This document shows, in pieces, positions 1 to 61,705 of a DNA stretch of 64,000 nt. A program made the translations under genes and the position numbers. This DNA is from a virus. The DNA is taken from IMG/VR virus record IMGVR_UViG_3300011189_000006, positions 27,135 to 91,134 of that record, one strand, 5' to 3'. Below the pieces are notes generated by a model, which worked only from the letters and a program-made list of their open reading frames with translations, made no database searches and was not told the origin of the DNA. Within the stretch, counting starts at the first letter, position 1; each line of letters starts with the position of its first letter.

Positions 1-374
1 AAATAATCCATAAACTCACCTATTGCATTATTAGTATCTTCTTTACTGAAGTAGCCAGTGAGTTCCATTACAATATCACCTTCACTCATTCCATTCAGTA
101 TCGATTTTTTAAAAATTGAATATAAACCAGTATATACACGTCCTTGTAATTGTCCTTCAAAATTACTTGGAGAGTACTGTGCATGTCTTGATGAAGAGTT
201 TGGTGGTGTGCCTTTCTTAACAGCACCAGATGATATATCGGAAAAAAACTCAACACCATCAACAACAATGTTGCCTCTAGTATTAATCTCTACTTTTCTA
301 CCAAATAAGCTAAGTATTTTACTTTTTTTACTTTCTTTCATCATTCTTTGTTTAAAGCTATCTATGTTTTTCAT
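1..374 (-). CDS. Hypothetical protein, truncated by the window edge (MKNIDSFKQRMMKES...)
   Basis: Open minus-strand frame from ATG at 374 running off the left end. A TTAATATATA motif lies upstream (~400-409). It displaces the + strand shadow ORF 58..504. Confidence 0.7.
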   Translation of the reverse strand, partial: MKNIDSFKQRMMKESKKSKILSLFGRKVEINTRGNIVVDGVEFFSDISSGAVKKGTPPNSSSRHAQYSPSNFEGQLQGRVYTGLYSIFKKSILNGMSEGDIVMELTGYFSKEDTNNAIGEFMDY

Positions 375-556
375 CTTGTGTTATTTTTTTTTATACAAAT
401 ATATATTAAATAAGAAGTATGGCAAAACTTATAATGATATATTCAACTATTTAATACTTATGGTCTATAACATTATAATGTCTGTTGTATGTAATACATT
501 ATAGTTTATTTATGACAACAAATTATTTTTTTCAAATACAAATACAAATAAATAAA

Positions 557-1342
557 ATGTCTGATAAAATAAAATTCAAAATTAAAAATGATATGTTTCC
601 CGATTTCATATCAAAATTAAAAGACTTAACGAATATTGATAAGACAATAAAGTTAAAAATAGACAGGGATAATATACTTATGTACTCTATGCTAGGTAGT
701 GGTTCTATAATGGTAGCTTTTAAAAATTATATCCTAAAGACTAGCGATTATCTAGAAACAAAAGAAGATATAGAATACACATACGATATTATTATCACTA
801 GTTGTGATAAGTTTGTAAAGAATCTTAGTTTTATAAAAGAAGAAGATTTAATTGGTATGGTTATTACACATAGAGATTCTAATGAGAATGATGATGTTAG
901 GGTTGCTAGAAAAATAGAAATAAAGGGTGGTAAACTAAAAGTAAATTGGCTAGCAGGTGAGTACTATGAGGTGAGAGATTTAACCAAAGAAAAATTAGAA
1001 GAAAATCTTGACTTAGACAATAGAACTTGGAACTTTTCTCTTACACAATCACAATTTAGTGATGTGAAGAAGCTATCAAAAATAAACACTGACAATATAA
1101 TAACGTTCAATGTTGATAAAGGAAAAGTATCTATATTTGAAAGAGCAGCATGGGATTTAGAAATTGGGATGATAGAAAATATTGATAAGAACTTTATATT
1201 TAATAAGAGGTTTTTAAAGTGTGTTGATGAAACAATGGAAAACATAGAGTTTAGTTTGTTCGACACTTTCATACTTGTCAAAAACAACGATAACAATCTG
1301 ATGTTGTCATATGAACAAGATTTTTCAGATGAAGATTTATAA
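557..1342 (+). CDS. Probable DNA sliding clamp (gp45/PCNA-like)
   Basis: ~260 aa, acidic, with two similar halves (F..F...LKDL..ID / F..VKKLSKIN). It sits next to the PolB fragments. ATG 557 follows an A-rich leader and is preferred over 485. Confidence 0.5.
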   Translation: MSDKIKFKIKNDMFPDFISKLKDLTNIDKTIKLKIDRDNILMYSMLGSGSIMVAFKNYILKTSDYLETKEDIEYTYDIIITSCDKFVKNLSFIKEEDLIGMVITHRDSNENDDVRVARKIEIKGGKLKVNWLAGEYYEVRDLTKEKLEENLDLDNRTWNFSLTQSQFSDVKKLSKINTDNIITFNVDKGKVSIFERAAWDLEIGMIENIDKNFIFNKRFLKCVDETMENIEFSLFDTFILVKNNDNNLMLSYEQDFSDEDL

Positions 1343-1357
1343 AAAAATAAAAAATAT

Positions 1358-1705
1358 ATGATTGATAGAGATAACGACTTAGACTTAAAAAAACCTATTT
1401 TTGTTCTATATGTTAATGGTGAAGGATATTCAAGACATAATACAGAAGAAAAGATAGATCATTACAAGCATTACTTAGAAAAAGATAATATAACACTTGT
1501 TGTTATTGTATCCGATAGGGATTCATTAGAAATAGTGTGGAATGGTAGTGATTACATGAAATCTGATCAACTACTACAAACTGATATTGATAAGATAAAG
1601 AAAAGTATGTGTAAAATATATGAAGTGGTATCCGAAGATATTACAGATGCTAACATAAAAAGAAAGTTAAGAAAATATCTAATAGAAGATATACTAGATG
1701 AATAA
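1358..1705 (+). CDS. Hypothetical protein with C-terminal R-x-x-x-I-x-x-I-L motif
   Basis: ORF track; co-directional within the operon. Confidence 0.7.
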   Translation: MIDRDNDLDLKKPIFVLYVNGEGYSRHNTEEKIDHYKHYLEKDNITLVVIVSDRDSLEIVWNGSDYMKSDQLLQTDIDKIKKSMCKIYEVVSEDITDANIKRKLRKYLIEDILDE

Positions 1706-2450
1706 AAAAGTAATACACGGCGACTGTTTTGACTATATGCCAAATATAGCAAGTAAAAGTATAGACTTGATATTTGCAGATTTACCATATGGGACTACTA
1801 AGTGTAAGTGGGATTGTATTTTACCACTAGATAAACTATGGTTAGAATATAAGAGAATAATCAAAGATGATGGTGCTATATTATTGTTTGCTCAGACACC
1901 ATTTGATAAAGTTTTGGGAAGCTCTAATTTAGAAATGCTAAGATATGAATGGATATGGGAGAAAACACAATCTACTGGGTTTTTTAATGCAAAGAAAATG
2001 CCTATGAAATCGCATGAGAATATTTTGGTATTTTACAAAAAACTACCAACTTACAATCCACAGATGACAAATGGGCATAAACCTATGAATTCATATACTA
2101 AGAAAGCATCTGTTCAGAATAAGACAAAAATATATGGGAAGGTAGATAAAGATGTAAGTGGGGGTGGTGAAACAATAAGGTATCCTAGAAGTGTACAGAT
2201 ATTCCCTTCTGATAAGCAAAAAAACAAATTAAATGGAACTATACACCCAACACAAAAGCCGTTAAAACTTATAGAGTTTTTCATAAAATCGTATACAAAT
2301 AAGGATGACTTAGTATTAGATAATGTAGCGGGTAGTGGAACAGTTGCCGTTGCGTGTGAGAACTTAGAAAGAAATTATATAGTCATTGAAAAGGAAATAG
2401 AGTATTATAATATTATATTGAAAAGATTAGAAATTAATAAAAATTTATGA
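1698..2450 (+). CDS. Orphan N6A/N4C DNA methyltransferase (beta class)
   Basis: IHGDC, catalytic DLPY, HPTQKP and SAM-binding DNVAGSGT motifs. Confidence 0.93.
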   Translation: MNKKVIHGDCFDYMPNIASKSIDLIFADLPYGTTKCKWDCILPLDKLWLEYKRIIKDDGAILLFAQTPFDKVLGSSNLEMLRYEWIWEKTQSTGFFNAKKMPMKSHENILVFYKKLPTYNPQMTNGHKPMNSYTKKASVQNKTKIYGKVDKDVSGGGETIRYPRSVQIFPSDKQKNKLNGTIHPTQKPLKLIEFFIKSYTNKDDLVLDNVAGSGTVAVACENLERNYIVIEKEIEYYNIILKRLEINKNL

Positions 2451-2514
2451 AATTACATTAAACATAGTACTTAGTAAAAACTATAAATAAAAACGAATAA
2501 TAAACAAAAACTCT

Positions 2515-3231
2515 ATGAAGGCTGAAACCAAAAAAGAAATAGAGTCATTGAAAAAACAAGCGAGCAAGCTAAAAAAGGAAGTTGATTACTACAACGCCTT
2601 ACAGCTTGCTCTTTGTTAACCCCCGCTAATTTATTTAGGGGGGGGTGGATGACTAAAATTAGTATTAAACGGAAGCTATGGTGCTTTTGCTGCTCCTTAC
2701 TTTATCTTATATAATAACCACGTTGCTGGTACTATTACATCAGAAGGTAGGGAACTTACAAAAAAGATGGACAAAGATAATGAGGACTATTGGTACAAAC
2801 AATGGCACTTAGACTTTGAATTGCATAAAAAACTATACATTGATAATGTAACACAAATATCTGAAAAAGAACCAGTTAGTATATATGGTGATAGTGTAGA
2901 TGGGAAGTCCATTATAAATACACTAGAGGGTAAATTTACGATAAAAGATCTTTATGATAAACAAAATAAATTATCTATCAGAAAAGATAAAGAAGTTATA
3001 CCTGTTAACTTTAAGTCATTAAATTGGACTGATGATGAAAAAATACATTATTCTAAGGTGAAGAATATAATTAGACACAAAACTTCTAAAAAGAAATGGA
3101 AAATAAAGAGTGGTGGTAAGGAAATCATTATAACAGAAGATCATTCCCTAATTGTTTTTAGAAATGGTGAAAAAATGGAAATAAAACCAAAGGAATTAAA
3201 AAGTGGTGATAGAGTTATAATACATAATTAA
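2515..3231 (+). CDS. Family B DNA polymerase middle fragment (fingers/motif B to YGD) fused to split-intein IntN; frame interrupted by a 42-nt insert
   Basis: ATG 2515 MKAETKK...NALQLAL, [insert 2614-2655], KLVLNGSYG...AGTITSEGR...SIYGD, then SVDG intein start. All parts are in the same frame as ORF 2767..3231. Confidence 0.88.
2614..2655 (+). other. 42-nt in-frame coding-gap insert with TAA and TGA stops and a GC-rich hairpin (candidate translational bypass element)
   Basis: CTT|TGT TAA CCC CCG CTA ATT TAT TTA GGG GGG GGT GGA TGA CTA|AAA. Hairpin at 2619-2646. Removing the insert restores Q-x3-K-x3-N-x2-YG. Confidence 0.8.
2893..3228 (+). other. Split intein N-fragment (IntN, 112 aa, Ser1, no Cys)
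   Basis: Block A SVDGKSII directly after PolB YGD; block B IITEDHSL; KPKELKSGD; then stop. Confidence 0.92.
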
Positions 3232-3260
3232 AAAGACTATAGACAGAATAGAACTAGCAT

Positions 3261-3398
3261 ATGAAAAAAGAAAATTATAAACTTTTAGAAATTGAAAGTG
3301 TAGAAGAAATTGGAAGCTTTGAGGATGAATACGTATATGATTTAGAAATGGAAGACGAATCACATACCTTCATAGCAAATGATATATTAGTACATAAC
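3261..3398 (+). other. Split intein C-fragment (IntC, 46 aa, no Cys)
   Basis: Block F EYVYDLEM..HTFIAN; block G ILVHN followed by +1 Thr of TDS. Confidence 0.93.
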
Positions 3399-4577
3399 AC
3401 AGATTCAATTTTTGTATCATTCAAACCATGTATGGATCACTGTGATTGGAAAAATAAAGTATTTAACAAAGAGTATTTAAACTCTATTGATAAACCATTC
3501 ATAGTATTATCAAGAACTAAACTAGATATAGACAATCCAAATTTAGTTGGGAAGATTATATCTAATAATAACACGGAAGATGATATTGATAAATTTGAAG
3601 AACTTTTAAAAAAGCCACATGATTTAATTTTAATGGATGGGTTTTACTCTAATAACAGAGATATAGTAAAAATTGTTAAAGACATGAACTTTGGTGATAA
3701 TCTAATCTGGAACTGGTCTAATGAAGTTGACTTTATCAACGGGATTGACCAAATAAGATTTGCTAACTTCTTCAAACAAATGCTTGATGAACATGCTGAT
3801 AGTTATGGTGTTGAGAATAAAGAAGATTTTGAATTAGAAAGAATATCAGAGTCTATTATCAATATAGCTAAGAAAAAGTATATCCAACACATATTATTCG
3901 AAGATGGAATTCCTTATGAAAGAATGGATTATATATTCCCAAAAGGTGTTGAATTAGTTAGATCATCAACACCCGCATTTGCTAGAACTAAGATTGTTGA
4001 TATTGTAAAGTATTTATTTTCTCACCCAGATACATTTAATATAAAGGATTTGTTAAGATTAGTTAAAGACCTTAGAAATGAGTTTGAATTAGCAGATATT
4101 GATGATATATCAATGCAATCTTCCGTTTCTAAATATGATGTTAAGGTTATAAACGATAAGTCGTTACCACTTCAATTTGTAAGTGGTGCACATTTTGCAG
4201 TCAAGTCGGCAGCACATCACAACTATCTATTAAACGAGAACAAGTCACTACAAAATAAGTACGAGTTTATAAAATCTGGGACTAAAATAAAGTACTATGT
4301 TTGTAAGGATAAAAAGATAACAGGTATGTTTGCTTATATAAGAGGATCTTATCCTATCGAAATGGCACCAGAGATTGACTATGATACACAATTTTCTAAG
4401 TCTATACTATCACCTATAAATTCTATTATAGAGCCACTAGGGATGCCAGAAATAACCAAAAGGTTATCAGTGGTAATGGATATATTCTCTGGGTTTGGTA
4501 TGTCACCAAATAAAAAGAAAAATGACGATGATGATTTGGGAGATATTCACGATGATGGCGATGATTTTCCATGGTAA
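3261..4577 (+). CDS. IntC plus family B DNA polymerase C-terminal fragment (palm/thumb)
   Basis: HN|TDSIFV, AKKKY, KGVELVRSSTP and KIKYYV gp43-like motifs. Confidence 0.93.
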   Translation: MKKENYKLLEIESVEEIGSFEDEYVYDLEMEDESHTFIANDILVHNTDSIFVSFKPCMDHCDWKNKVFNKEYLNSIDKPFIVLSRTKLDIDNPNLVGKIISNNNTEDDIDKFEELLKKPHDLILMDGFYSNNRDIVKIVKDMNFGDNLIWNWSNEVDFINGIDQIRFANFFKQMLDEHADSYGVENKEDFELERISESIINIAKKKYIQHILFEDGIPYERMDYIFPKGVELVRSSTPAFARTKIVDIVKYLFSHPDTFNIKDLLRLVKDLRNEFELADIDDISMQSSVSKYDVKVINDKSLPLQFVSGAHFAVKSAAHHNYLLNENKSLQNKYEFIKSGTKIKYYVCKDKKITGMFAYIRGSYPIEMAPEIDYDTQFSKSILSPINSIIEPLGMPEITKRLSVVMDIFSGFGMSPNKKKNDDDDLGDIHDDGDDFPW

Positions 4578-4584
4578 TTAAAAC

Positions 4585-4622
4585 AAAACTCTTACTATTT
4601 CATATAATAGTAAGAGTTTTTT
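4585..4622. terminator. Inverted repeat, probable (bidirectional) terminator after pol
   Basis: aaaactcttacta...tagtaagagtttttt. Confidence 0.65.
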
Positions 4623-4626
4623 AATT

Positions 4627-4947
4627 ATGCATATAAGGAAGGAAATAATACAAGGTGTTGAATATAATTTCTATAATGATATAGATTATAAAACTGTCTT
4701 AAATCACTGTAACGAAGGCACAGATGGGTTTATGTATATTCTTATTAAAGATTTAGAAGAAGAAAGCAAAAAATTTGAAAGAAGTTCTAAAATAAATAAT
4801 ATATTAAATAATACACCAATACTTACAATTGATAATATAAATAACTCATACATATCATCTTACCTTTATGGGTCAGAAGACATTGATACATTTTTGAGTA
4901 TAATAATAGATAAAATAAGAAGAGATTATAATAATACCAAGTACTAG
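4627..4947 (+). CDS. Hypothetical protein
   Basis: ORF track. Confidence 0.65.
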   Translation: MHIRKEIIQGVEYNFYNDIDYKTVLNHCNEGTDGFMYILIKDLEEESKKFERSSKINNILNNTPILTIDNINNSYISSYLYGSEDIDTFLSIIIDKIRRDYNNTKY

Positions 4948-4949
4948 GA

Positions 4950-5130
4950 GAGTAAACCATATATTTAGTGAACTACTTAACCGCTAAAGGCGGTTAAGTT
5001 TCAAGAGTCAACACTTCCTCTAATGAGGACAGTTCGTCATGATTTTCGGTGGCAGTCCCTGACACCGTATTATTTTTAATTAAAGCAAAGTTTTTAATGT
5101 TTATAGCTGCATTAATATCTCTATCATGTT
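4950..5130 (-). ncRNA. Predicted TnpB omegaRNA (reRNA) overlapping the tnpB 3' end, guide ~TAAATATATGGTTTAC; 5' boundary approximate
   Basis: Known architecture of IS605 right ends; the terminal hairpin is visible in the sequence. Confidence 0.6.
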
Positions 5131-6263
5131 GTGCGTTACACTCCTTACAAGACCACTCACGGTCTTTAAGCGTTAATTCGTGGTTTATGTCTCCACAACT
5201 AGAACAAGTCTTGCTAGAGGGATCGTATCTACCTATTTTAAGTAGATTAACACCATACCAATCACATTTGTATTCTAGCATAGTGGTAAACATACCCCAC
5301 CCAACATCTGAAATAGCCTTGGCTAGTTTTCTATCTTTCATCATGCCTTTAATATCTAAATCTTCTATAGCTATAGATTGGTTCTCTTTAACTAGTCTAG
5401 AAGATTCCTTATGTAAAAAGTCTTTCCTTTGAAAAGCCGTTTTTTCATGTATTTTTGATAATTTCCTTTTAGTACGTACTCCTTTGTTTCTAGAGTATTT
5501 CCTTTGTGTATATTTTAACTTTGATTCATTATTTTTTAAATATCTAGGATTATTGACTTTATCTCCTTTTGAGAATACCATAAAATCTTTAATGCCTAAA
5601 TCTATACCAATGGTCGTCTCAGCTTTTATGACTGGCTTAGGCTTTCTGCCTACACCAGTATCACATGATATGCTTACATAATACTTACCAGTTGGTCTTC
5701 TAGATATAGTAGCGAACTTTATCGCTCCCTTTGCCGCTCTATGCAACTCAATTTTTATACCTTCTCTGAATTTAGGTATGGATAGTTTTCCATCATCAAA
5801 ATATATATTTTGTGGTATATGGAACGATTGCTTACCACTCCATTTAGACTTAAATTTAGGATAGCCACTTGTTTTTCTACGAAATCTTTTAAAAGCATTA
5901 TCTAGGTTTTTAATTGGTGCTTGTAAGGTTTGGCTATTTATTTCTTTTAACCACTCAACATCTTTTTTAAGACCAGGTATTTGCTTTATTAGGTAGTAAC
6001 AATCAAAAGGAGTTGTTTTATTTTCGTTAGAAGAATTGTTTACCTCCAACCCTATATTATATATGAATCTAGCAGAACCAATATGTTTATTGATTAGTTC
6101 TACTTGTTCCTTATTTGGATATAATCTGTACTCAAATGCTCTTAACATAATGTATATATTAATAAATATCCCTTCTCTATTACTATTCTAGATTTTATTT
6201 GTATATTTGCCTACGCCTTACATCACATCGGCTGAAGACCAATGTGTTTCACGACATGATTTT
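4968..6263 (-). mobile_element. IS200/IS605-family element (tnpB only, IS1341-type)
   Basis: Right-end hairpin acttaaccgc-taaag-gcggttaagt ending GTAGTTCAC on the minus strand. Left-end hairpin cacatcggctgaagaccaatgtg (6225-6247). TTAT putative TAM lies just outside the left end. Confidence 0.85.
4994..6148 (-). CDS. tnpB: RNA-guided endonuclease TnpB (IS605 OrfB)
   Basis: HTH AFEYRLYPNKEQ; RuvC D-E-D intact (GIDLG, IEDL, DRDINAA); Zn finger CSSC/CKEC. Confidence 0.95.
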   Translation of the reverse strand: MLRAFEYRLYPNKEQVELINKHIGSARFIYNIGLEVNNSSNENKTTPFDCYYLIKQIPGLKKDVEWLKEINSQTLQAPIKNLDNAFKRFRRKTSGYPKFKSKWSGKQSFHIPQNIYFDDGKLSIPKFREGIKIELHRAAKGAIKFATISRRPTGKYYVSISCDTGVGRKPKPVIKAETTIGIDLGIKDFMVFSKGDKVNNPRYLKNNESKLKYTQRKYSRNKGVRTKRKLSKIHEKTAFQRKDFLHKESSRLVKENQSIAIEDLDIKGMMKDRKLAKAISDVGWGMFTTMLEYKCDWYGVNLLKIGRYDPSSKTCSSCGDINHELTLKDREWSCKECNAQHDRDINAAINIKNFALIKNNTVSGTATENHDELSSLEEVLTLET

Positions 6264-6300
6264 ATAAATTAATATATAGTATATAAAAATAATGTAAAAT

Positions 6301-6801
6301 ATGAATGCCCTTATGAGATATGATGGTTATACATCAAGTGATAGAGTGGATGATTTACTAGATAAAATATTAAGATATGGAATTGGTTCTATAACAGAAC
6401 TTGAAATATCATTTTTAGACTCATATTCATGTAATGAAGAAGAATCCATACATAATATTATAATAAAAGAAGAATCTGAAAAGGTTTTTGAAGATGATGA
6501 TAGTAACTTTAGGTTTGAGTATTCACATACTGAAATTCTTGATGAAGAGAGGCATTTTATAGGTACTCTATATGTACCAGATATGATTTTAAATAAAAGA
6601 CATAAAATAGAAGGTATATTAAGTGGTAAAATAATATTATTCCATAATGGTACTACATCACCAGACTTTTATCATTTTATTGATAATAAAACACATTACG
6701 ATGTATTTGAGTTCTGTTCTAGACTAGAATATGAATTAGATATGTTTATTGATTATGTAATAGGTGAGATAACTAATAATGATTTCGAATCAAAGGTTTA
6801 A
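6301..6801 (+). CDS. Hypothetical protein
   Basis: ORF track; TTAATATATA upstream. Confidence 0.75.
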   Translation: MNALMRYDGYTSSDRVDDLLDKILRYGIGSITELEISFLDSYSCNEEESIHNIIIKEESEKVFEDDDSNFRFEYSHTEILDEERHFIGTLYVPDMILNKRHKIEGILSGKIILFHNGTTSPDFYHFIDNKTHYDVFEFCSRLEYELDMFIDYVIGEITNNDFESKV

Positions 6802-6811
6802 GGTTTAAATT

Positions 6812-7336
6812 TTAAAGATTTCTGGGTAAGTCAGCATCTGTATCTTCTGGCTCTATATTCTCATCATCCTCTAAATCGCTATAAAAGTCTTCCTCCTCTA
6901 AATAATATTCATCAGATTTTCTTCTTTTTTCTTTCTGTATCTGATTAACATAATAACCAGCGATTATAAATTCAGTACCAGCCCAAAGTAAAAACTCTGA
7001 CATTGTCATAAATTTATAATGGTGTAATAAATATAATACCATACCAGTCTGTCCTATTATAAAACCAATTGATGATTCAAACCTTTTCTTAGAGAAAAAT
7101 GATGGCTCATCAGAATATATTTTACAAAATTCTCTAATCACCCATTTCAAATTCATCCAACCAAAGAATCCGTATATAAATATGTTTCTATTTTTTTTAG
7201 TATCAGTACAATTGTCACTACATCTTCTTTTACTAGTACCTGTTTTTAAATTTACTTGAATAGTTTTATTGCCTCTTGATCTACTCTTTGACACATCTAG
7301 GTTAATTACGTATCTCTTTGATTTCTTGTTTTCCAT
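6812..7336 (-). CDS. Membrane protein with 2-3 hydrophobic segments and an acidic tail (possibly holin-like)
   Basis: Hydrophobic segments IGFIIGQTGMVLYLL and FLLWAGTEFIIAGYY. Confidence 0.55.
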   Translation of the reverse strand: MENKKSKRYVINLDVSKSRSRGNKTIQVNLKTGTSKRRCSDNCTDTKKNRNIFIYGFFGWMNLKWVIREFCKIYSDEPSFFSKKRFESSIGFIIGQTGMVLYLLHHYKFMTMSEFLLWAGTEFIIAGYYVNQIQKEKRRKSDEYYLEEEDFYSDLEDDENIEPEDTDADLPRNL

Positions 7337-7499
7337 ACAGTATATATTATTTTATGAAAATAGATTATTAATATATAAGCCATATTTGATTATGGGCTTA
7401 ACGAAAACATTACAATCTTTGCTAAAAGAGCAAAACAAACACTTTATATCGGTTGATAATAAGTTTTTCAAAAGATGGAAATATATTATTATACTTATT

Positions 7500-7859
7500 A
7501 TGAAAATGAATCCAAATTATAAACATTGTGTTATATACAGAAAAAGGTATAAAAGACTAAATTACTTTGTGGTTGTTGGGTTAAAATATAGTGGTGAAAA
7601 TGTTAAGAGGAGAACTTCGGGATTTGCTAAAAGATATATAAACCGACATAGAAATTATAGATGTATATATTGTGATGATAAGTTAAATTATGATAATGCT
7701 ACTTCTGATCATATAATACCAATAAGTAGTGGTGGTAATAACACGAAGGTTAATTTAATTGTGTGTTGTAGATACTGTAACAACGAAAGGGGAAATACTC
7801 CATTTAGAGAATACTTAAGATATAAAAACAAAAACTATAGAAGTATAAAATTCATATAG
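7500..7859 (+). CDS. HNH endonuclease
   Basis: CIYC...DHIIPISSGG.N...NL..CC..CN; ATG 7500 is the likely start. Confidence 0.85.
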   Translation: MKMNPNYKHCVIYRKRYKRLNYFVVVGLKYSGENVKRRTSGFAKRYINRHRNYRCIYCDDKLNYDNATSDHIIPISSGGNNTKVNLIVCCRYCNNERGNTPFREYLRYKNKNYRSIKFI

Positions 7860-7862
7860 TGT

Positions 7863-9059
7863 TTATAAGTATTTTAAAGCCTCTATCTTCTTGGAATAAT
7901 CAATATCGTTATAATTTGGCTTATATTTGTTTTTAGGAATCCATTTTAAGTCCATGACATCCTTGCTAAAGAAACCCTCTAGGTCAAGGCTTTTGTAAGC
8001 ATTTGGTTTTACCTCACATAGTTTATTTAAGTCCTTAACTTTTGATATTTTATGTAACAATCTAAATGGGTCTTCAACATTTTTTTTATCAACAATATCT
8101 TCAAATAACTTTTTCCATAAAAATACAGGATATCCTTCTATTATTTTTTCTTGTGATTTCTTAAACCCTGCTAGGTCATTATCGAAAAAATATCTTAAAT
8201 CTAAGTCATTAGTTTCTAAGAAGCGATAATCGGTGTTTATACCAACCATACCAAGACTATTAGGAAAAAATAAAGAATCTAAATATCCCTCAAATATAGT
8301 TAGTGGACTAGAAAAGTCTACATTTAATATATTAAAATAGTAAGATAGTTTATTATAGATAACCATCTGATTTATATCTGGTTCTTCAACATTTTCTTTA
8401 CCATGGTTGGTCCATTCTAAAAGGTTTTCATAATTGTATATTTTAAACATTCTTCTTTTCCCCATCTTCAAATTACGAATTTGCATACCAAGAACCTTAT
8501 CATCTCTTTTGTTGAGCATTATTATAATCCATTGAGATTCATTTTCGTTTATCCAAAATTTACCTTGATAAATGTTAGTATGTGCAGAAGGTGGTATTCC
8601 TCTATCTACTAGATACTTATATATACCACTATTAGTAACAATTGGCTTAAAATCTGATATCGGTGTTATATTTTCATTGAATACTCTTTCAAGTTCTGAT
8701 AAATCAATTAAGTCATCAAACTTAGCATCTACAAAATCATTACTATAATCAGTATATGTCATAACACTATCTAGATATTCAATCATTTCTAATTTCTTAT
8801 CAGGATCTATTTGTTCATTATGGTCTTTGGCAAACTTATCTAATGTAGTTTTTTTATCACAGTTAAAGCATACGTAAAAAAGTCTATTCAAATATAAGTT
8901 CCCTCTCTTAGCATTATTATTATTATGACTATCTCCACAGTAAGGGCATGCAAAATTGAATCTATCATTATAATCAATGACTTTTCTTTTCTGTGTGTTA
9001 GAAAATTCTTTACTAACTACCTTCTGTATTATATTTTTTATGTAATCTTTATCCATCAT
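7863..9059 (-). CDS. DNA primase (T4 gp61-like)
   Basis: Zn-binding CPYCGDS...CFNC; TOPRIM FEGYLDSLF and FFDND; DLN. Confidence 0.9.
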   Translation of the reverse strand: MMDKDYIKNIIQKVVSKEFSNTQKRKVIDYNDRFNFACPYCGDSHNNNNAKRGNLYLNRLFYVCFNCDKKTTLDKFAKDHNEQIDPDKKLEMIEYLDSVMTYTDYSNDFVDAKFDDLIDLSELERVFNENITPISDFKPIVTNSGIYKYLVDRGIPPSAHTNIYQGKFWINENESQWIIIMLNKRDDKVLGMQIRNLKMGKRRMFKIYNYENLLEWTNHGKENVEEPDINQMVIYNKLSYYFNILNVDFSSPLTIFEGYLDSLFFPNSLGMVGINTDYRFLETNDLDLRYFFDNDLAGFKKSQEKIIEGYPVFLWKKLFEDIVDKKNVEDPFRLLHKISKVKDLNKLCEVKPNAYKSLDLEGFFSKDVMDLKWIPKNKYKPNYNDIDYSKKIEALKYL

Positions 9060-9131
9060 TATATATATAGTTTTAATGTAACTAAGTTCACTATATGATT
9101 GACATTTAACTATAATTTGGTATAATGTTGA

Positions 9132-10253
9132 TTAGTTTCCCTCTTTCTTAGAATTTTTATTCTTATCTATGCTTTTTCGAGATTTCTTTCCTTTAAATTC
9201 CTTATTAAGTTCTCTTCTTTTATCAACTAGTTCTTTAGATAACTTAGCTAAATATTCTGTTTGTTGGTTATGTTGATTAGCAAAGTCGTCTTGTCTATTA
9301 TCTGGTCCTTGTGGATAAAGCCTACTAGTCATGTTTCCAAATTGTGTAAGTGATAGTACTGAACTTTCTTTACCAGGTGTTGATATTTCTTCATCAAACT
9401 TTTTAATGGTCTTAGTAACATTGTCAGGATTTTTAGTTCTCTTAACAACATACTTTATAATATTGGGAAACTTTTCTTTGGTTATGTTAGCTATTAAATC
9501 TTCTATGTGTTTGGCATTTTTTAAATCATCATCAGAAAATCCTAATATAGCCTTTATACCAACTCTATCAGAAAATGCATTTATCCTATTCTTAAACTCT
9601 AGAAGTGCTTCTCCTTTAAGTACTTCTGTATTGGTGGTTATACCACCCCTAGAAGGTGATGAAACACCAATAAACTCACAATTCTTTAAATATTTTTTAA
9701 CTAATTCGTTTTCCGTAGGTATTCCCACTAAAACTCTCTCATATTCTTTTTCATAATTGAACAAATATGCAAATTTTAGTAAGTTATTGTACATTAGGTA
9801 CAACTCTTCCTCTGTTAGTATATTGTCTATAATCCAAGAAACACCCTTAATTATGGATTCTCTTTCATGTCCTCTTGCAGTAATTATAGAAAAAATTGAA
9901 CCATTTGTCAAACACTCTTTAAAGTCTTGCCAAGATGGTCCATAATTTTCTTTACTAATAGCTTCCTTCACATCTAATAAAAAAGCATTATCTTCCCTGA
10001 GTCCATCGTCTCTGAATTCAGAAAAGGCTTTCTCTGGATTGTTATTAGACAATCGCCATTTATCAGAAGCATCTCTAACATTTGCATAAAAAGATGTAGA
10101 AATGCTTTTTTCAACCCATTTACCATCAACCAACTCTTCCATATGTATCGGTGTTGACATATCTAATACGTTATCATCCCAATCGAAACTATAATATAGG
10201 AGGTATTTATCCGAACTAGATTCGGATATGTATTGGTTAAAGCTTTTGAGCAT
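9132..10253 (-). CDS. HAD-like phosphatase family protein with capsid-targeting-like N-terminus
   Basis: FDWDDN (motif I), ITARG (motif II), FSDDD.KN (motif IV). Confidence 0.6.
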   Translation of the reverse strand: MLKSFNQYISESSSDKYLLYYSFDWDDNVLDMSTPIHMEELVDGKWVEKSISTSFYANVRDASDKWRLSNNNPEKAFSEFRDDGLREDNAFLLDVKEAISKENYGPSWQDFKECLTNGSIFSIITARGHERESIIKGVSWIIDNILTEEELYLMYNNLLKFAYLFNYEKEYERVLVGIPTENELVKKYLKNCEFIGVSSPSRGGITTNTEVLKGEALLEFKNRINAFSDRVGIKAILGFSDDDLKNAKHIEDLIANITKEKFPNIIKYVVKRTKNPDNVTKTIKKFDEEISTPGKESSVLSLTQFGNMTSRLYPQGPDNRQDDFANQHNQQTEYLAKLSKELVDKRRELNKEFKGKKSRKSIDKNKNSKKEGN

Positions 10254-12712: not shown

Positions 12713-15130
12713 ATGTCTGTAAATACAAAGTTAACACTATCGGTAAAAAGTGGTCCTGGTGATATAGTTGGTGTCACTGAAATCCAATCAATAAATGGTA
12801 GGGCTGACTTTAATGGAATACAATTTACTGAAGCTGGATCATATATACTAACTATAACACCAGATAACATAAATGTCGAAAGTGCTGAAGTAGAAATAAA
12901 TGTATCACCAGAGGAAGATTTTATCCCACAAGATAATCCAATCGAACAGAGTGAAGAAGGAGAAGAAGAACAAGAAGCATTAGAAGGGTCTAGACCTATT
13001 ATAAGCCAAATAAAAGAACCTACTCTAGATTTAAAAGCTATGCAATTTGATGCTAGTCCTAATGAGGGAGATAATAGCGAACTTTTGACTAGTCTGGGAT
13101 TTACACCATTTCTTTGGTATAATGGTGTTCAGATGAGAGTATCAGATATAAAATCATTGTATTTATATTATGAGAATAATATCCCAAGGTGTAGAGCAAT
13201 TATAATAGACACACTTGGATTCATAGGTACGCAAGATAGTATGCCATTAAATGATACTAAATTTGAACTTTTTATAAATTCTGGCTCTGATATTTTAAAA
13301 TCTATACATCTTAGATTTAAAATGCAATTTAACCAAGAAAACAAGAAAAATGGTACATATACAATTACTGGTACTTTAGATGTAGATAATTTTTATAAAA
13401 AAGGCTACAAGTCATACAAAGGAACTTCTTTCAATGTTCTAAAAGAATTAGCAGTAGAGAATGGTATTGGATTTAATTCAAACATAGGAAATACAAACGA
13501 TACAATGACTTGGAGAAAAAATGGTAGTAATATACCAGAATTTGTAAAGAATGTAGTCAAACATTCGTATATATCAGATAATTCTTTCATTTTAGGTTAT
13601 TATGATTATTATTGGTGTTATAACTGCATTGATATCGAAAAGGAGTGGAATAGAGATATAAAAAATGACCTAGGTCTTAACACACAAGGATTGTCTTCAT
13701 TAGATAGCAACATGGAACTAACACCACTAGTTCTAACAAATGATGCTAGTTCTGATGCATCTGGATTCTATTTCAATAAGTATAGATTTAGGAATAATTC
13801 AACGTATCAGACAACAAATAGTGGTATTTATACAATTTCAAGAGTTTATGATAGAAGCACAAAACAATTCTTAAAATTTGATATAGATTCTTTAAATTCT
13901 GATAATAGTGATAATATAATTTTAAAGGGAAGACCAAACGATACAGAAGAATTAAAACAAAGTTATAATACAGATTATGGTGGTAAGATAGATACTGATA
14001 ACATCCACCAAAACTATATGTATGCTCTTTCACAGAATGAAAGAAATGTTAAGAACTTACATAACATATCAATTGAATTAGATATGCCACAGCCAAACTT
14101 TAATGTTTATAGATATCAAAAAATAAGAGTGAATTTTATTAACCAAAAACAGACACCAATAAATACGGTTGTTGTAAATGAGAGGCTAACTGGTGAGTGG
14201 TTAATCACGGATATATCTTTTGTGTGGAAGAGGGGAACTTTAACACAGAAGTTAACTATTGTAAGAAAAGAATTAGGCAAAACACTAAAAGAAAAAGAAA
14301 CTCAACAAACCGAAGATACTGCTGAAAATAATTCTGAAATAAATGAAAATCCATTAGATAATTTACAAACAGAAGGATTGGAATTACAAGAAGAACAAAA
14401 TGATGATTTTATATTTAGTGGTGGTACTTTCACAGAGGGTGAAGAGTTCACAGAGAGAGAATTCCAAGGTGAAGAAGAATCAGAACTTACTATACCACCA
14501 GAAGACCAAAGGCTTTATGAAACTGAATCTAACCAAATAAATAATAGTCCAACACCTATATCAGAGGGGAATTATAATATAGATTTTATAGAAGGGAGTT
14601 ATGTAGATAACCAAGGTAATGACATAGAGGTTTGTCAGATTGATGGAAGTGCTATAAATGTAAAAGTGGTTGGTAAGTATCTGGATATGAAAGAAGCAGC
14701 ACGAAGTGATGGTATATTACTTAGTGTTAATTCTGGATTTAGATCACCGATAGATACTATAAACACGAAGTCAAATAATGGTGTCTTAGTTAGAGCTAGC
14801 TCACAGAAATACCTATATGATAACTGGGTAGCTAGAAAACCTGGATTTAACTTAGCCGCAAAGCCATATACTTCTAAACATGGAAATGGTATAAGTTTAG
14901 ACTTAAATACTGGTAGTAGAACAAAGAATACATTAAATGAATCTTTATATTCTTGGTTAATTAAAAACTCATGGAAGTATGGATTTGTTAGATCTGTTAG
15001 AAGTGAAGAGTGGCATTTTGATTATTTACCAAACTTAATAAATAGTTCACAAGGTGGTCCTTACTCTAAACTAGCTGCCAACGACTCAAATTTATTTTTT
15101 AGTGATTTGGGCTTAGATAGATTAAGCTAG
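12713..15130 (+). CDS. Baseplate hub-like protein with C-terminal M15 (VanY-like) peptidoglycan peptidase
   Basis: C-terminal SGFRS, AAKPYTSKHGNGISLDL and EEWHFDY. Hub-like ending LTGEWLITDI...QKLTIVRKE. Adjacent to the gp5-like gene. Confidence 0.75.
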   Translation: MSVNTKLTLSVKSGPGDIVGVTEIQSINGRADFNGIQFTEAGSYILTITPDNINVESAEVEINVSPEEDFIPQDNPIEQSEEGEEEQEALEGSRPIISQIKEPTLDLKAMQFDASPNEGDNSELLTSLGFTPFLWYNGVQMRVSDIKSLYLYYENNIPRCRAIIIDTLGFIGTQDSMPLNDTKFELFINSGSDILKSIHLRFKMQFNQENKKNGTYTITGTLDVDNFYKKGYKSYKGTSFNVLKELAVENGIGFNSNIGNTNDTMTWRKNGSNIPEFVKNVVKHSYISDNSFILGYYDYYWCYNCIDIEKEWNRDIKNDLGLNTQGLSSLDSNMELTPLVLTNDASSDASGFYFNKYRFRNNSTYQTTNSGIYTISRVYDRSTKQFLKFDIDSLNSDNSDNIILKGRPNDTEELKQSYNTDYGGKIDTDNIHQNYMYALSQNERNVKNLHNISIELDMPQPNFNVYRYQKIRVNFINQKQTPINTVVVNERLTGEWLITDISFVWKRGTLTQKLTIVRKELGKTLKEKETQQTEDTAENNSEINENPLDNLQTEGLELQEEQNDDFIFSGGTFTEGEEFTEREFQGEEESELTIPPEDQRLYETESNQINNSPTPISEGNYNIDFIEGSYVDNQGNDIEVCQIDGSAINVKVVGKYLDMKEAARSDGILLSVNSGFRSPIDTINTKSNNGVLVRASSQKYLYDNWVARKPGFNLAAKPYTSKHGNGISLDLNTGSRTKNTLNESLYSWLIKNSWKYGFVRSVRSEEWHFDYLPNLINSSQGGPYSKLAANDSNLFFSDLGLDRLS

Positions 15131-30441: not shown

Positions 30442-30691
30442 TAATTATACAACAAACTTATATATCATGAGAAAAGCTAATAATACAAAGAAAATATTTA
30501 CAGACTATTATTTAAATGGTTTTAGATGGTATAGAAAATGTCGCAAAGTTAATTGGTATAAGCATCAATTTACGAAAGATGCTTTAGAACTATCACCAAA
30601 CTTTACTGGTACTTGGTGGGTTTTGTATGGGAAGGTAAATAGATATAGCAAAGTCACCAAAGAAGAAAAATGGTAATATAACAGAGAAAGT

Positions 30692-30910
30692 ATGAACAAA
30701 ACATTAAGATTAGCAGCAGAAAACATTTTAAAGAATTTACTTCTTGAATGCACAGAAGATCAGAAAACAATATTTAAGCGTATGTATTGTCACAAAAACT
30801 TAGAGTTACCGATAAATGATGCAGTTGATCAAATATCAGATGATAAAATTGATTGGGCTATCACACAGTGCGAAAGAAGCGTAGTTAAAAACAGAGCATC
30901 AATAATTTAA
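30692..30910 (+). CDS. Hypothetical protein
   Basis: ORF track. Confidence 0.65.
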   Translation: MNKTLRLAAENILKNLLLECTEDQKTIFKRMYCHKNLELPINDAVDQISDDKIDWAITQCERSVVKNRASII

Positions 30911-30997
30911 ATAAAATTTATTGTTTTTCGTAGTTTTAACCAATTAGTAGTTGTATATTTGTCTATATTAAATAATTAAAAGAAAGAAGTGATAATT

Positions 30998-31200
30998 AAA
31001 CTCTTTTGATTGAAGATAAACTAGGATGTTAAAACCGTCAGTACTCATTAGAGCACTGTTTAGCGTTTGTCTACCCGAATCTGTATCAGCAGTTGTTTTA
31101 TTAGAGATATGTAAAGAATAATAGTGTATCGCCCTGCGAAGTCAGTTTAAAAGCTAAAGCTATTTGATACATTCTAGAGTGATACTAGTCAGAAGAGTTT
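30998..31200 (+). ncRNA. ~200-nt rod-shaped structured RNA (6S-like architecture, unassigned)
   Basis: 14-bp closing stem 30998-31011/31187-31200; 9-bp stem 31021-29/31169-77; stem 31059-68/31149-58; TATATTTG promoter at 30954. Confidence 0.6.
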
Positions 31201-31273
31201 TTATTAAAATAATTAACCCTTTAATTAAAAGTAAATAATAATTTAAGTAATCACGTACTGGATATGGATGTAG

Positions 31274-31512
31274 TACTTACTACCTGACCTATTAAAAGCC
31301 AAATAGACAACGTGTTGGCAAATTATTATACTGTTTATCAGCAGTTGTGTTTATTTTTATGATGTTTAACTAGCTTTGAAAGCAAAACATCCCAAGTGAT
31401 GCTGGTTTTGAAGAGGCTATATAATTACTTACAAAGTAATAAAACTCGTACTGACTCTTAACTGAGAAGTACATGTATATATAAAAGGCAGGTAAAGATC
31501 CTGAAGTAAGTA
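31274..31512 (+). ncRNA. ~240-nt multibranch structured RNA (unassigned)
   Basis: tacttac/gtaagta and tacctg/caggta closing stems. Internal hairpins gccaa/ttggc, gatgttt/aaacatc, attactt/aagtaat and gtact/agtac. Confidence 0.5.
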
Positions 31513-31535
31513 ATTTTTTATTAAAATTAAATATT

Positions 31536-31664
31536 ATGAATATAAAGGGAATGTTAATATATGTAGGATCAGCAATTATACTTTTTATAATATGTTGTTT
31601 AATAGACAGGTATGGTAATAAGCCCGATAAACCTACTCCTCCTGGATTTAGATGGGGGGATTGA
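31536..31664 (+). CDS. Possible 42-aa single-TM peptide (MNIKGMLIYVGSAIILFIICC...)
   Basis: ATG after an A/T-rich leader; hydrophobic stretch; overlaps the next RNA-like element. Confidence 0.4.
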   Translation: MNIKGMLIYVGSAIILFIICCLIDRYGNKPDKPTPPGFRWGD

Positions 31665-31776
31665 AGGAAACCGTTAAGCCTTGAATACGGTGTGATTAAA
31701 TTAAATAGTCCCAAAACAGATAAACTCCTAGATGAGGTAATGTAATAAGAGGTTAATCACTAAAGATAGGTAGGTT
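31630..31776 (+). ncRNA. Four-way-junction structured element
   Basis: aacctac/gtaggtt enclosing tcctcc/ggggga, accgt/acggt and gtgattaa/ttaatcac. Confidence 0.45.
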
Positions 31777-31781
31777 ATAAG

Positions 31782-31910
31782 ATGTAGTATTAAGTTAATC
31801 AATCGTCTATATAGTAGGATAGTTAGCTAACAGCGTACAGAAATGGGTGCAAGTACCATTTGGTTATTAAATAAGAAATTAGGAGTCGAAATCTTTAGTT
31901 AATACTACAT
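31782..31910 (+). ncRNA. Degenerate tRNA-like cloverleaf (31796-31866) enclosed by a perfect 12-bp stem
   Basis: Acceptor TAATCAA/TTGGTTA, D stem GTCT/GGAT, T arm ATGGG-TGCAAGT-ACCAT with canonical spacing. Anticodon stem mismatched, no CCA. Clamp atgtagtattaa/ttaatactacat. Confidence 0.6.
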
Positions 31911-31921
31911 ATTATATTTAT

Positions 31922-32039
31922 TAAGTGTACCAACTAATTGTAATAAGGTTGGAAGTAATAATAGGGAAATAGCTAGTTACTCAGCCCGAACTCAATTGGG
32001 GGATTTTGCCAAGAGGTTATGAAAAACAAAATACACTTA
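31922..32039 (+). ncRNA. ~120-nt multibranch structured element
   Basis: taagtgta/tacactta closing stem; ccaac/gttgg and agtaat/gttact arms. Confidence 0.45.
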
Positions 32040-32128
32040 GGCAAACAATTTACAGAAAAAAGACAATCAGTGACACGCATTAGACGAAACGTAGTAGAAT
32101 TTTGATTCTAGCGACATTATCTTTTTAT

Positions 32129-32210
32129 CCATTTGTAGTAGTGATAACCCGAACAAAGCTAAAGTACACAAAAGGTTATAGGCGATGTACGCTACTACAG
32201 ATGGTTTTTT
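32129..32210 (+). ncRNA. ~76-nt element with 15-bp closing stem followed by a T-run
   Basis: ccatttgtagtagtg/cgctactacagatgg; inner ataacc/ggttat. Confidence 0.5.
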
Positions 32211-32234
32211 AATAAATATATAGTATAAGTTATA

Positions 32235-32747
32235 TTAGTGGGGTTCTACTTCCTCAATGTCAACTATTTTCAATCCTCTATCATCAATTATTGCAATTTC
32301 ATACTCATCTGGGTATTCAGCTCTATTACCTAATGTTGAAGACATATCAATATTTTCTGATGACATTTCAATAGTTACAATGAACCACTTTTTAGTTTCT
32401 TCTCCGTAACGGTGTAAAAAAGACTCTACAAAATCATAATCATCATACATATCTTTATCACCTACAAAAGATTTACCTAAATCTTCTTTGTTTATATCAT
32501 CAATACTATCAACATTCAATAATCTATAAAGGATGACTGTATTTGGAATGTCTTGTATTCCATATGGGAAATCAGTATTACAGAAATCATTTAATCTATC
32601 AAGAATTTCATAATAATCACCATATGGACCACCCTTTACCTCATCGTGATAATATTTATTTGCGTAGTCAAGTGCTATTTCATTATAGTCATCTTCATCA
32701 AAATTTTCATCATAGTCTTCAAATAATTTTAAATACTTCATTATCAC
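32235..32747 (-). CDS. Putative ADP-ribosyltransferase-fold protein with capsid-targeting-like N-terminus
   Basis: LYR...GKSF...DEYEI (R-S-ExE spacing); MKYLKLFED. Confidence 0.45.
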   Translation of the reverse strand: MIMKYLKLFEDYDENFDEDDYNEIALDYANKYYHDEVKGGPYGDYYEILDRLNDFCNTDFPYGIQDIPNTVILYRLLNVDSIDDINKEDLGKSFVGDKDMYDDYDFVESFLHRYGEETKKWFIVTIEMSSENIDMSSTLGNRAEYPDEYEIAIIDDRGLKIVDIEEVEPH

Positions 32748-61027: not shown

Positions 61028-61705
61028 ACTAAATCCATTAGAACACGGTTTCGAATCGATAAAAAAATACCCAGAATTATCAATAAAATATCCAATTGAT
61101 AGTGATTCATACTTTGTCAAAGTTGTGTGTTATGATAATGCTAAGGAATTAACATACTGGTATATTATTCTTAACCAATCTACGTGGGATGATAGAATTT
61201 TCTTAAGTGAAGGTTCGTATGATTTCAATAGAGATCCAGATTATGAATCACAAAATAAAGATAGGATTGTATATGGTGGACTTGTATCCAATGATGACTT
61301 CTTTAAGAACCTACTTACCCATCTTATGGGAACAACAGTTACTGATAGCGTATATGAACTACACATTAGCTAAAGACTAATGTGTTTCGGGTTTCATAGA
61401 GTTTGCTTTATCACTAAAGTCTTATTTACTCTCCACCTTTGTAATGGCAAGTCCCTTACCATATATTTATTTAATTAGGACTAACACATCCAGTTAAGGT
61501 AGGCATCCATTAACATATATATTAATAAGTTTACCTTCCCTATTGGCATTTTAGATTTTATTTGTATATTTGCCTATGTCTAACATCACATCGACTGAAG
61601 ACCAATGTGCTTTACGACATAATTAATAAGGAAGGTATGAGCAGATATGATAGTAATATTGGGGAACAAATGAGATTTGAATTTAAAAAAGAATACAATG
61701 ACTGA
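61014..61705 (+). pseudogene. Hypothetical gene interrupted near its 3' end by the MITE (truncated product 61014..61373)
   Basis: Removing 61354-61625 restores ...TDSVYKEGMSRY...KKEYND* ending at TGA 61703-61705. Confidence 0.75.
61354..61625 (-). mobile_element. 272-bp non-autonomous IS200/IS605 derivative (left end, promoter region and omegaRNA/right end; no ORF)
   Basis: 61511-61622 is similar to 6143-6260. Right-end hairpin acacattag-ctaaaga-ctaatgtgt ends GTAGTTCAT. TTAT lies at the left junction. Confidence 0.85.

Follow-up and report, generated by a model that had tools for sequence, protein, structure and literature searches.

The cassette and its genomic setting

The window analysed here is a stretch of 64,000 nucleotides (nt; bases 27135-91134) of the 91-kb IMG/VR virus record IMGVR_UViG_3300011189_000006, which is about 42% complete, and the subject of this report is the region 30911-32234 within it, where two copies of a structured RNA family, designated F1, lie beside several smaller stem-closed elements and one short protein gene. 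Comparative sequence analysis identifies F1 as a real, conserved family of structured RNAs with strong covariation. The window, which comes from an uncultured lake phage, has a G+C content of about 29% and carries phage genes including those for DNA polymerase, a homing endonuclease, and NAMPT. A gene adjoining the region has relatives on viral contigs of 421 kb and 675 kb, which suggests that the source is a very large phage. The host phylum is very probably Bacteroidota, on the grounds of a TAnnTTTG-type motif upstream of the region and of the presence of F1 in Cellulophaga phages.

An original prediction, made from the letters of the sequence, had described the region as a promoter followed by a stretch with no credible open reading frame (ORF), tiled by seven structured RNA units (numbered 1 to 7 below) belonging either to a precursor of several small RNAs or to one large RNA. 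As an observation, this was borne out for the promoter motif and for units 1 and 7, but not for the unit boundaries, the lack of ORFs, or units 3 and 6. As an interpretation, a cassette of RNA genes on the plus strand stands, whereas the seven units reduce to at least two conserved structured RNAs (three with unit 7), and the single large RNA is unlikely. In agreement with the prediction, which recognised no known family, no Rfam 15 family was matched at gathering score in the whole window, and a search of 30500-32700 at E≤10 gave no relevant Rfam match, its four chance-level hits all lying outside the units. ARAGORN found no tRNA or transfer-messenger RNA (tmRNA) in the window, the whole record contains no tRNA, and the region had no blastn match among 50,697 phage records.

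The promoter-like motif TTGTATATTTG is found exactly at 30951-30961 on the plus strand and fits the TAnnTTTG -7 box, which is of the Bacteroidota type. It occurs in five exact copies in the window, of which at least those at 6199, 30951, and 61562 stand 40-115 nt 5' of a gene on the same strand or of the first F1 copy; with one mismatch allowed, 23 matches were counted, compared with 12.4 ± 3.6 in shuffles. The motif also stands ahead of the F1 genes in two other loci, L015 and L120 (viral loci are designated by L numbers), and TTGTATATTTG is a candidate promoter. From 30911 to 32234 the plus strand has no ORF of at least 60 amino acids (aa), and the predicted fold of the region reaches -268.7 kcal/mol on the plus strand as against -221.3 on the minus strand. 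The cassette is bounded on its 3' side by a convergent gene (32235-32747, minus strand) for a 170-aa protein of unknown function with 22 homologues at 47-99% identity. Single flanking proteins used as queries found no viral loci; an alignment of the 170-aa family found nine, among which the cassette is present only in L004, a 43-kb metagenome contig from a close relative (99% identical over 31517-32260 and about 90% over 30992-31543). Since L002 and L005 have protein genes in place of the RNA units, the cassette is accessory.

Structure and covariation of the F1 family

Units 1 and 2 have in common a 13-mer, TATCAGCAGTTGT, which has just these two occurrences in the 91-kb record. A scan of IMG/VR with it returned many chance matches plus one recurrent context, ...AAACUGUAUCAGCAGUUGUGUUUAUUGUAGAGGU..., which has the 5' end (AAAsUCUUUGaUUGAAGAUAAAC) and the 3' end (CCAUAACUGAAAUUUGGaCAAAGAsUUUUU) of unit 1. 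A covariance model, R1, was built from 17 F1 copies, unit 1 being in the seed, and detects 58 copies (45 of them distinct) at 58-146 bits in the fetched viral loci, with lengths of about 160-260 nt. F1 is a four-way-junction RNA composed of P1, P2 (bearing P3 and P4), P5, and P6. P1, a helix of 9-12 bp, pairs the two ends of the RNA; P2 bears the variable arm P3 and the invariant P4 hairpin AACUGUAUCAGCAGUU; P5 is a variable arm closed by a helix of the GAUGU/AYAUC type; and P6, a short hairpin whose loop reads CUGAAAU (YUGAWAU type), lies immediately before the 3' strand of P1. Conservation is nearly complete at about 35 positions in the junctions and loops, the P3 and P5 arms vary freely, and the invariant core CUGUAUCRGCAGUUGUKUU(U)AUU spans the P4 hairpin and the 3' strand of P2. 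The fifth base of the P6 loop is U wherever the second base of the junction is not U (with one exception, L161), a co-occurrence that may simply mark subfamilies of F1.

In the alignment of the R1 copies, 97.2% of cells pair across P1, P2, P4, P6, and the closing helix of P5. Covariation had been named in the original prediction as a check on its units, and for the family of unit 1 it is strongly positive: 17 of the 29 pairs change on both sides, in 114 cells, none of 500 shuffles reaches any of the measures, and pairing falls to 41-57% of cells when the partners are slid. All nine pairs scored in P1 change on both sides. The closing helix of P5, which was detected by mutual information and covaries with five pair types, lies outside R1 and therefore supports the structure independently. 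The variation in P2 and P4 consists solely of changes from A-U to G-U, which are pairable on the sense strand only, and this identifies the strand read here as plus as the sense strand.

The full member F1a (unit 1) occupies 30998-31203 on the plus strand and scores 99.4 bits against R1 (E 8e-15), having been in the seed. It is built of a 12-bp P1 with one G-U pair, the junction UUGAAG, P2, a P3 arm, the P4 hairpin CUGUAUCAGCAG, the junction UAGAGAU, a P5 arm, and a P6 of the form CUAG-AGUGAUA-CUAG, the loop variant AGUGAUA being found also in L147; a U-run follows P1. The core lies at 31081-31102 in F1a and at 31330-31354 in the second copy, F1b. F1a differs from its counterpart in L004 by two substitutions (A>G twice), both of which keep P2 pairs as G-U.

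F1b (31213-31423, plus strand) has an enlarged P3 arm and scores weakly against R1 (20.8 bits, E 0.13). Its elements are all traceable by eye, namely P1 (CCCUUUAA/UUGAAGAGG), P4 (ACUGUUUAUCAGCAGU), the P2 3' strand GUUUAU, P5 (GAUGUUU/AAACAUC), and P6 (CCA-AGUGAUGC-UGG), whose loop AGUGAUG resembles the unusual loop of F1a. Within 31205-31436 the differences from L004 are confined to the two strands of P1: L004 has lost one C from the 5' strand and two bases from the 3' strand, which also carries a G>A and an A>G change, and the outcome is that an 8-bp bulged helix becomes a perfect helix of 7 bp. Three lake populations carry the same P1 changes as L004. On this comparison, F1b is read as a diverged F1 paralogue with a compensatory change in P1. 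Its limits, which follow the homology, replace those predicted for unit 2 (31274-31512). The closing stem claimed for that unit (31274-31290 with 31496-31512) is better explained otherwise: its 3' arm finds its partner in 31424-31436, and the two enclose another module, at about 31420-31520.

Fold z-scores were computed against dinucleotide shuffles, on the plus strand unless stated; 35 background windows of 200 nt gave a mean of -0.31 (sd 1.16), with 3% at or below -3.2. Unit 1 has a z-score of -3.2 (-2.3 on the minus strand) and unit 7 of -4.1 (-2.2 on the minus strand; -3.5 including its U-run). Unit 2, in its predicted bounds, has -2.7. Units 4 (-1.7; minus strand -1.2) and 5 (-2.0; minus strand -0.5) are moderate, whereas units 3 (-0.5) and 6 (+0.5) fold no better than shuffles. 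Units 1 and 7 are the only ones set apart by their folding energy. The same two units carry what had been described for the longest closing stems in general, i.e. G-U pairs that work on the plus strand alone (in stems of 12 and 15 bp, respectively), which is not the case for unit 4.

Identity, distribution, and neighbourhood of F1

F1 is absent from Rfam 15. The F1 copies in 16 family loci matched no Rfam family at gathering score, only tRNA, tmRNA, and GOLLD being matched nearby, and the copies in five loci gave no Rfam match at E≤5. No description of the family was found in the part of the literature that was covered. The exact core is present in 53 viral contigs. In representatives of 185,579 species genomes, the exact 19-mer of the core was matched 10 times, with one true copy, on a 37-kb contig of a Lutibacter metagenome-assembled genome (MAG). 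The other nine matches were rejected as chance, the rest of the F1 structure being missing (about four were expected by estimate), and R1 detected no further F1 in 150 more genomes of the class of this MAG. Neighbourhoods were tabulated for 39 distinct F1 loci, and no neighbouring protein family is common to more than five of them. From this viral distribution and the lack of a constant protein neighbour it follows that F1 is a phage-specific, stand-alone RNA gene whose product probably acts in trans.

A tRNA on the same strand lies within 500 nt of F1 in six of the 39 loci; in five of these six F1 is 3-11 nt from the nearest tRNA, and in four it is closely flanked on both sides. In L036 a tRNA begins 7 nt 3' of F1, and in L027 F1 stands 89 nt after a tmRNA. 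L124 has, in one same-strand array over positions 1-9775, about 25 tRNAs, a tmRNA (5476-5873), GOLLD (7898-8381), and F1 (1482-1667). Among cultured phages, Cellulophaga phage phi4:1 has an F1 copy of 120 bits at NC_021788 129598-129796 (NC_021788.1; L130 2426-2624), and Cellulophaga phage phi17:2 also has F1. The coding sequence of phi4:1 gp168 (129616-129774), a hypothetical protein, falls wholly within the F1 gene and is probably a mis-annotation.

Close, diverged F1 paralogues occur two or three to a phage (L168 9335-9507 and 9775-9998; L004 7517-7708, 8548-8753, and the equivalent of F1b), their variable arms differing and the core being kept. A second recurrent motif, (G)UAACCUUGAAAGACCCGAA(C/A), occurs in several F1-bearing phages (L143 at about 13400-13446, L162, L141/L127, L147, and L036/L158/L163/L166 at about 380-440), and in L143 and L162 it lies directly 5' of an F1 copy. 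ACCCGAA(A/C) is found also in unit 7, unit 5, the P3 arm of F1a, the element F3 described below, and 5' of the L015 promoter, and CCCGAA is concentrated in the cassette, which holds three of the four forward copies genome-wide. The ACCCGAA-type motif may be a common tertiary or protein-binding motif.

These neighbourhoods bear on two other explanations of F1. The cassette could consist of cis-acting leaders, terminators, or attenuators serving neighbouring protein genes (the gene for a 42-aa protein described below and small genes upstream), as would fit the U-runs after P1 of F1a, after the 31420-31520 module, and after unit 7, the 3' untranslated position in which F1 is placed by a 60-aa ORF between promoter and F1a in L004, and the position of unit 7 at the end of a convergent gene pair. 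This is improbable, as the neighbours of F1 are unrelated across the 39 loci, F1 is bracketed by tRNAs in the tRNA arrays with no protein gene to regulate, the tRNA 7 nt after F1 in L036 means that transcription must read through, and a 200-nt four-way junction with an invariant core far exceeds the needs of a terminator. Still less probable is a self-cleaving or catalytic RNA that cuts polycistronic transcripts of tRNAs or other RNAs. A multi-helix junction with some 35 nearly invariant nucleotides and variable peripheral arms is the typical pattern of a ribozyme, F1 lies flush between tRNAs in some arrays, and it has no conserved protein partner nearby; against this, F1 matches no Rfam ribozyme family, no candidate cleavage site was found, most copies lie outside arrays that would need cutting, and the pattern of conservation suits a protein- or RNA-binding scaffold equally well.

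Elements 3' of the F1 pair

The module at about 31420-31520 (plus strand; inverted repeat I13) is closed by AAUUACUUAC/GUAAGUAAUU, followed by U6, and has a variable interior and z-scores of -2.9 on the plus and -2.7 on the minus strand. In L004 the two closing strands are retained around an interior that is different and longer, and the module may act at the RNA or at the DNA level.

It is followed by a short gene (31536-31664, plus strand) coding for MNIKGMLIYVGSAIILFIICCLIDRYGNKPDKPTPPGFRWGD, a 42-aa protein with one hydrophobic helix. Six of seven single-nucleotide polymorphisms (SNPs) in the lake populations fall at codon position 3, five changes being synonymous, one N>K, and one P>H, and the L004 protein has one substitution, all five DNA differences lying at codon position 3. 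This pattern of substitution marks it as a genuine membrane-protein gene, and the region is therefore not free of credible ORFs, as had been supposed. The existence of one real small ORF invites the explanation that further small proteins are encoded here and that the structures are incidental to AT-rich sequence. A 31-aa ORF (31026-31121) lies inside F1a, a 36-aa ORF (32102-32212) lies over unit 7, and units 3 and 6 are at shuffle level. This is nevertheless very unlikely: the ATG of the 31-aa ORF is missing in the paralogue at L004 7517-7708 and no frame is kept across F1, phi4:1 gp168 is an artefact of the same kind, and covariation reflects selection on pairing and not on codons. A 114-aa ORF on the minus strand (31370-31714), antisense to the 42-aa gene and to F1b, is reduced to 70 aa in L004 and is probably spurious.

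Unit 3 overlaps the 3' end of the 42-aa gene, and the rest of it (31665-31787, plus strand) is a poorly conserved spacer. One lake variant shows 26 substitutions and seven indels over 31586-31787, nearly all of them 3' of the 42-aa ORF.

Unit 4 (31788-31916) is a hairpin element of 129 nt that some variants have and others lack, and its ends are formed by inverted repeats of 23 nt (I1, 31776-31798 with 31894-31916, 87% complementary). Contig joints 31787>31917 and 31772>31917 skip the unit, the skipped segment having TA at both ends. Its closing stem has no G-U pair, so that it may belong to either strand and act as RNA or as DNA, and it is single-copy in the 91-kb record. A reading of unit 4 as a tRNA mimic or "degenerate cloverleaf" was rejected, ARAGORN finding no gene and no tRNA-clan match being obtained at E≤10. 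Unit 5 (31922-32039, plus strand) is a hairpin, likewise single-copy in the record, whose closing stem (UAAGUGUA/UACACUUA) is conserved and whose interior is replaceable: higher-depth contigs from other genomes keep 31924-31949 and 32032-32074 and carry 16-19 other letters in place of the 78-82 nt between, which is weak evidence because the sides are short, and SNPs at 31974 and 31981 break predicted inner pairs. Queried by nhmmer against the whole record and 1.5 Mb of fetched loci, units 3-6 and the extra element of L004 matched only themselves. Units 4 and 5 are hairpins that vary by insertion or deletion and may be RNA or DNA elements.

In a DNA-level explanation, the stem-closed units would not be functional RNAs but miniature insertions with inverted repeats, or else cassettes for recombination or termination through which accessory genes are exchanged between phages. 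A precedent is offered by the promoter-early stem-loops (PeSL) that flank mobile gene cassettes in T4-type phages. The clean 129-nt presence or absence of unit 4, with its terminal inverted repeats and TA at both ends, its stem without G-U pairs and its similar z-scores on both strands, the exchange of interiors within kept closing stems in unit 5 and in the 31420-31520 module, and the whole-module differences between relatives that are 99% identical all speak for it. It leaves unexplained, however, F1, which covaries with G-U tolerance on one strand and has conserved single-stranded junctions internally, and unit 7, the two G-U pairs of whose stem would be A-C on the opposite strand; moreover, the single copies of units 4 and 5 in the record are unlike those of a miniature inverted-repeat transposable element (MITE). 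For the stem-closed units, a DNA-level nature is a real possibility, though not the favoured one.

Unit 7 (32121-32215, plus strand) is a conserved module closed by a 15-bp stem with two G-U pairs and followed by U6. The T-run at the end of the cassette sits directly after this long stem, no classical short G+C-rich intrinsic terminator was found in the cassette, and unit 7 is the probable 3' end of the transcription unit. Short contigs at 15-30 times the word depth of the backbone match it over 32121-32215 with 3-5 differences and run into unrelated flanks on both sides, from which it follows that unit 7 is discrete and common to other genomes in these lakes. By nhmmer (E 0.006) its interior aligns to the P5 arm of L135, which belongs to F1, and one pair there differs in a compensatory way (AACC/GGUU versus GACC/GGUC), and its 5' strand, UUUGUAGUAGUG, resembles the F1 junction UUGUAGAGGUA. 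TGTAGTA, reported to recur at or near the 5' sides of three units, is indeed present at 31269, 31783, and 32134, with its reverse complement at 31903 and 32193, i.e. five of the 23 occurrences in the 91-kb record, and this recurrence is probably explained by the likeness of UUUGUAGUAGUG to UUGUAGAGGUA. A viral scan with the core 18-mer of unit 7 gave seven matches, which were dismissed as chance, all lying in coding or GC-rich sequence.

L004 contains about 945 bp in addition, in which a promoter and two small ORFs accompany a third F1 copy and F3, an element of 280 nt; it also has the 60-aa ORF between its promoter and F1a. Inserted in the L004 cassette and missing from the window are, both on the minus strand, the gene for a predicted 100-aa lipoprotein (7717-8019; signal peptide plus Cys and a C-terminal hydrophobic helix) and the 60-aa ORF (8790-8972). 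F3, about 280 nt long and ORF-free, has a counterpart in the window at about 61354-61630 (minus strand), 90% identical to L004 7240-7515 (minus strand). It contains AAACCCGAAAC and several hairpins, its fold z-score is -2.7 on the minus strand as against -0.85 on the plus strand, and where its copies differ, pairing is preserved as G-U on the minus strand. F3 is antisense to flanking genes on the plus strand, which over F3 has TTGTATATTTG at 61562.

Since modules are found on their own in other genomes, and close relatives differ by the gain or loss of one module at a time, one large multidomain RNA, as the prediction had allowed, is unlikely. In the cassette, RNA modules (F1, unit 7, and F3) are seen to move as whole pieces, both from phage to phage and, within one phage, from locus to locus.

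Interpretation

Taken together, the region is probably an accessory cassette made up of two F1 paralogues, a stem-closed module, the 42-aa gene, two indel hairpins, and unit 7; F1 itself may be a tRNA-shaped RNA that acts in trans. The cassette would be read on the plus strand from the TAnnTTTG-type promoter at 30951-30961. The tRNA-shaped reading of F1 rests on its positions in tRNA slots, its topology, and its loop sequences: by analogy P1 would take the part of the acceptor stem, P6 that of the T arm, and P5 that of the anticodon arm, and the elbow would be formed by the P4-loop UCAG and the P6-loop CUGA. The CUGA of the P6 loop is complementary to the UCAG of the P4 loop, and pairing between the two loops, as well as a T-loop reading of UGAAA/NNAGA, are candidate features suggested by the comparison with tRNA.

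Several observations weigh against this account. F1b folds no better than shuffles (z -0.5) and, given also its weak R1 score (E 0.13), may be decaying. The alignment (A4) was fitted to the R1 structure for four of the five helices. The closing stems kept around exchanged interiors in units 4 and 5 and in the 31420-31520 module fit DNA-level elements as well. About 32 of the 39 F1 loci, the present window included, have no tRNA within 2 kb, which means that tRNA-linked processing is not general. The likeness to tRNA is one of topology and of loops too invariant to covary, and F1 has U-rich ends, not CCA, and is rejected by ARAGORN and by the Rfam tRNA model. Finally, promoter, transcript ends, and processing steps are all predicted from the sequence.

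With respect to mechanism, it is tentatively proposed, by analogy, that F1 undergoes processing of the tRNA type and acts in trans on a factor that handles tRNA. F1 would be freed from longer transcripts by host tRNA-processing nucleases, or cut out together with neighbouring tRNAs, and would then persist as a stable tRNA-shaped RNA binding a conserved host or phage factor whose normal substrate is tRNA; a decoy for a tRNA-targeting defence nuclease is the leading guess at such a role. Phage tRNA regions are now viewed as counter-defence loci. A stronger form of the proposal, and an unlikely one on present comparisons, is that F1 represents a new class of tRNA-shaped phage RNA, released by host tRNA-processing enzymes, that neutralizes a host factor acting on tRNA, e.g. 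an anticodon nuclease. The invariant core, together with the anticodon-arm-like or T-arm-like hairpin (loop CUGAAAU or CUGAUAU), would then bind the factor, and F1 would be an RNA-only form of counter-defence in which the variable arms and the several paralogues per genome may tune it to different targets.

F1 is compact, backed by covariation, and rich in natural variants, and its presence in cultured Cellulophaga phages with cultured hosts makes it accessible to deletion, structure probing, and pull-down. Adding F1 to Rfam would correct annotations in many Bacteroidota phage genomes.

Comparison with known RNAs and mobile elements

F1 resembles tRNA and tRNA-like RNAs (the tmRNA domain and YrlA/Y RNA) in its four-helix-junction topology and its paired ends. 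Its closing helix would stack on a short hairpin whose 7-nt loop lies against the 3' strand of that helix, an arrangement that recalls the acceptor and T arms of tRNA. Unlike tRNA, it has a P1 of 9-12 bp instead of 7, long conserved junction strands, and an extra arm, and lacks CCA and a discriminator. Identity with tRNA or tmRNA was rejected, as ARAGORN called no gene in the window and no tRNA-clan model (RF00005/RF00023) was matched at E≤10 over 30500-32700. Y RNA and YrlA were likewise set aside: Rfam gave no match, and the Ro/TROVE domain (PF05731) was not found in the 91-kb record, itself about 42% complete, the control genomes being positive. Like 6S RNA, including the 6S-Flavo model, F1 is about 200 nt long with paired termini and is a trans-acting candidate, but no 6S family was matched at E≤10, and covariation supports a branched four-way junction where 6S RNA has a rod with a central bubble. 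RNase P and the known ribozymes and riboswitches were excluded, the whole window giving no Rfam match at gathering score.

Units 4 and 5 and the 31420-31520 module are comparable to MITE- or PeSL-like cassettes in being bounded by inverted repeats and gained, lost, or refilled between relatives. They differ from these in that each element is single-copy here and no transposase or target-site duplication has been shown, whereas F1 and unit 7 carry RNA-level signals.

To our knowledge, the non-tRNA RNAs of phage tRNA regions (T4 rnaC and rnaD, and later GOLLD and ROOL) have been without a known role for 50 years. GOLLD and ROOL are, like F1, structured RNAs of phages and prophages of unknown function that are often adjacent to tRNAs, and L124 has a GOLLD copy 6 kb from its F1 copy. 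They are described (PMC12286853) as RNAs of 400-800 nt forming multimeric assemblies, whereas F1, at 160-260 nt, matches neither the GOLLD nor the ROOL Rfam model. T4 rnaC (species 1, 139 nt) and rnaD (species 2, 119 nt) are, like F1, small phage RNAs of unknown function near tRNAs, and are stable; according to the T4 annotation, they lie in the tRNA-gene region, a few bases from tRNAs and beside a homing-endonuclease gene. Homology was rejected, since R1, run with filters off over T4 69500-74500, gave nothing over rnaC or rnaD and at best 16 bits elsewhere; rnaC has a canonical T arm, GGGUUCGAAUCCCGG, which F1 does not, and the host phylum differs. By analogy, rnaC and rnaD nonetheless probably offer the best model for the production of F1, i.e. 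release during the processing of neighbouring tRNAs.

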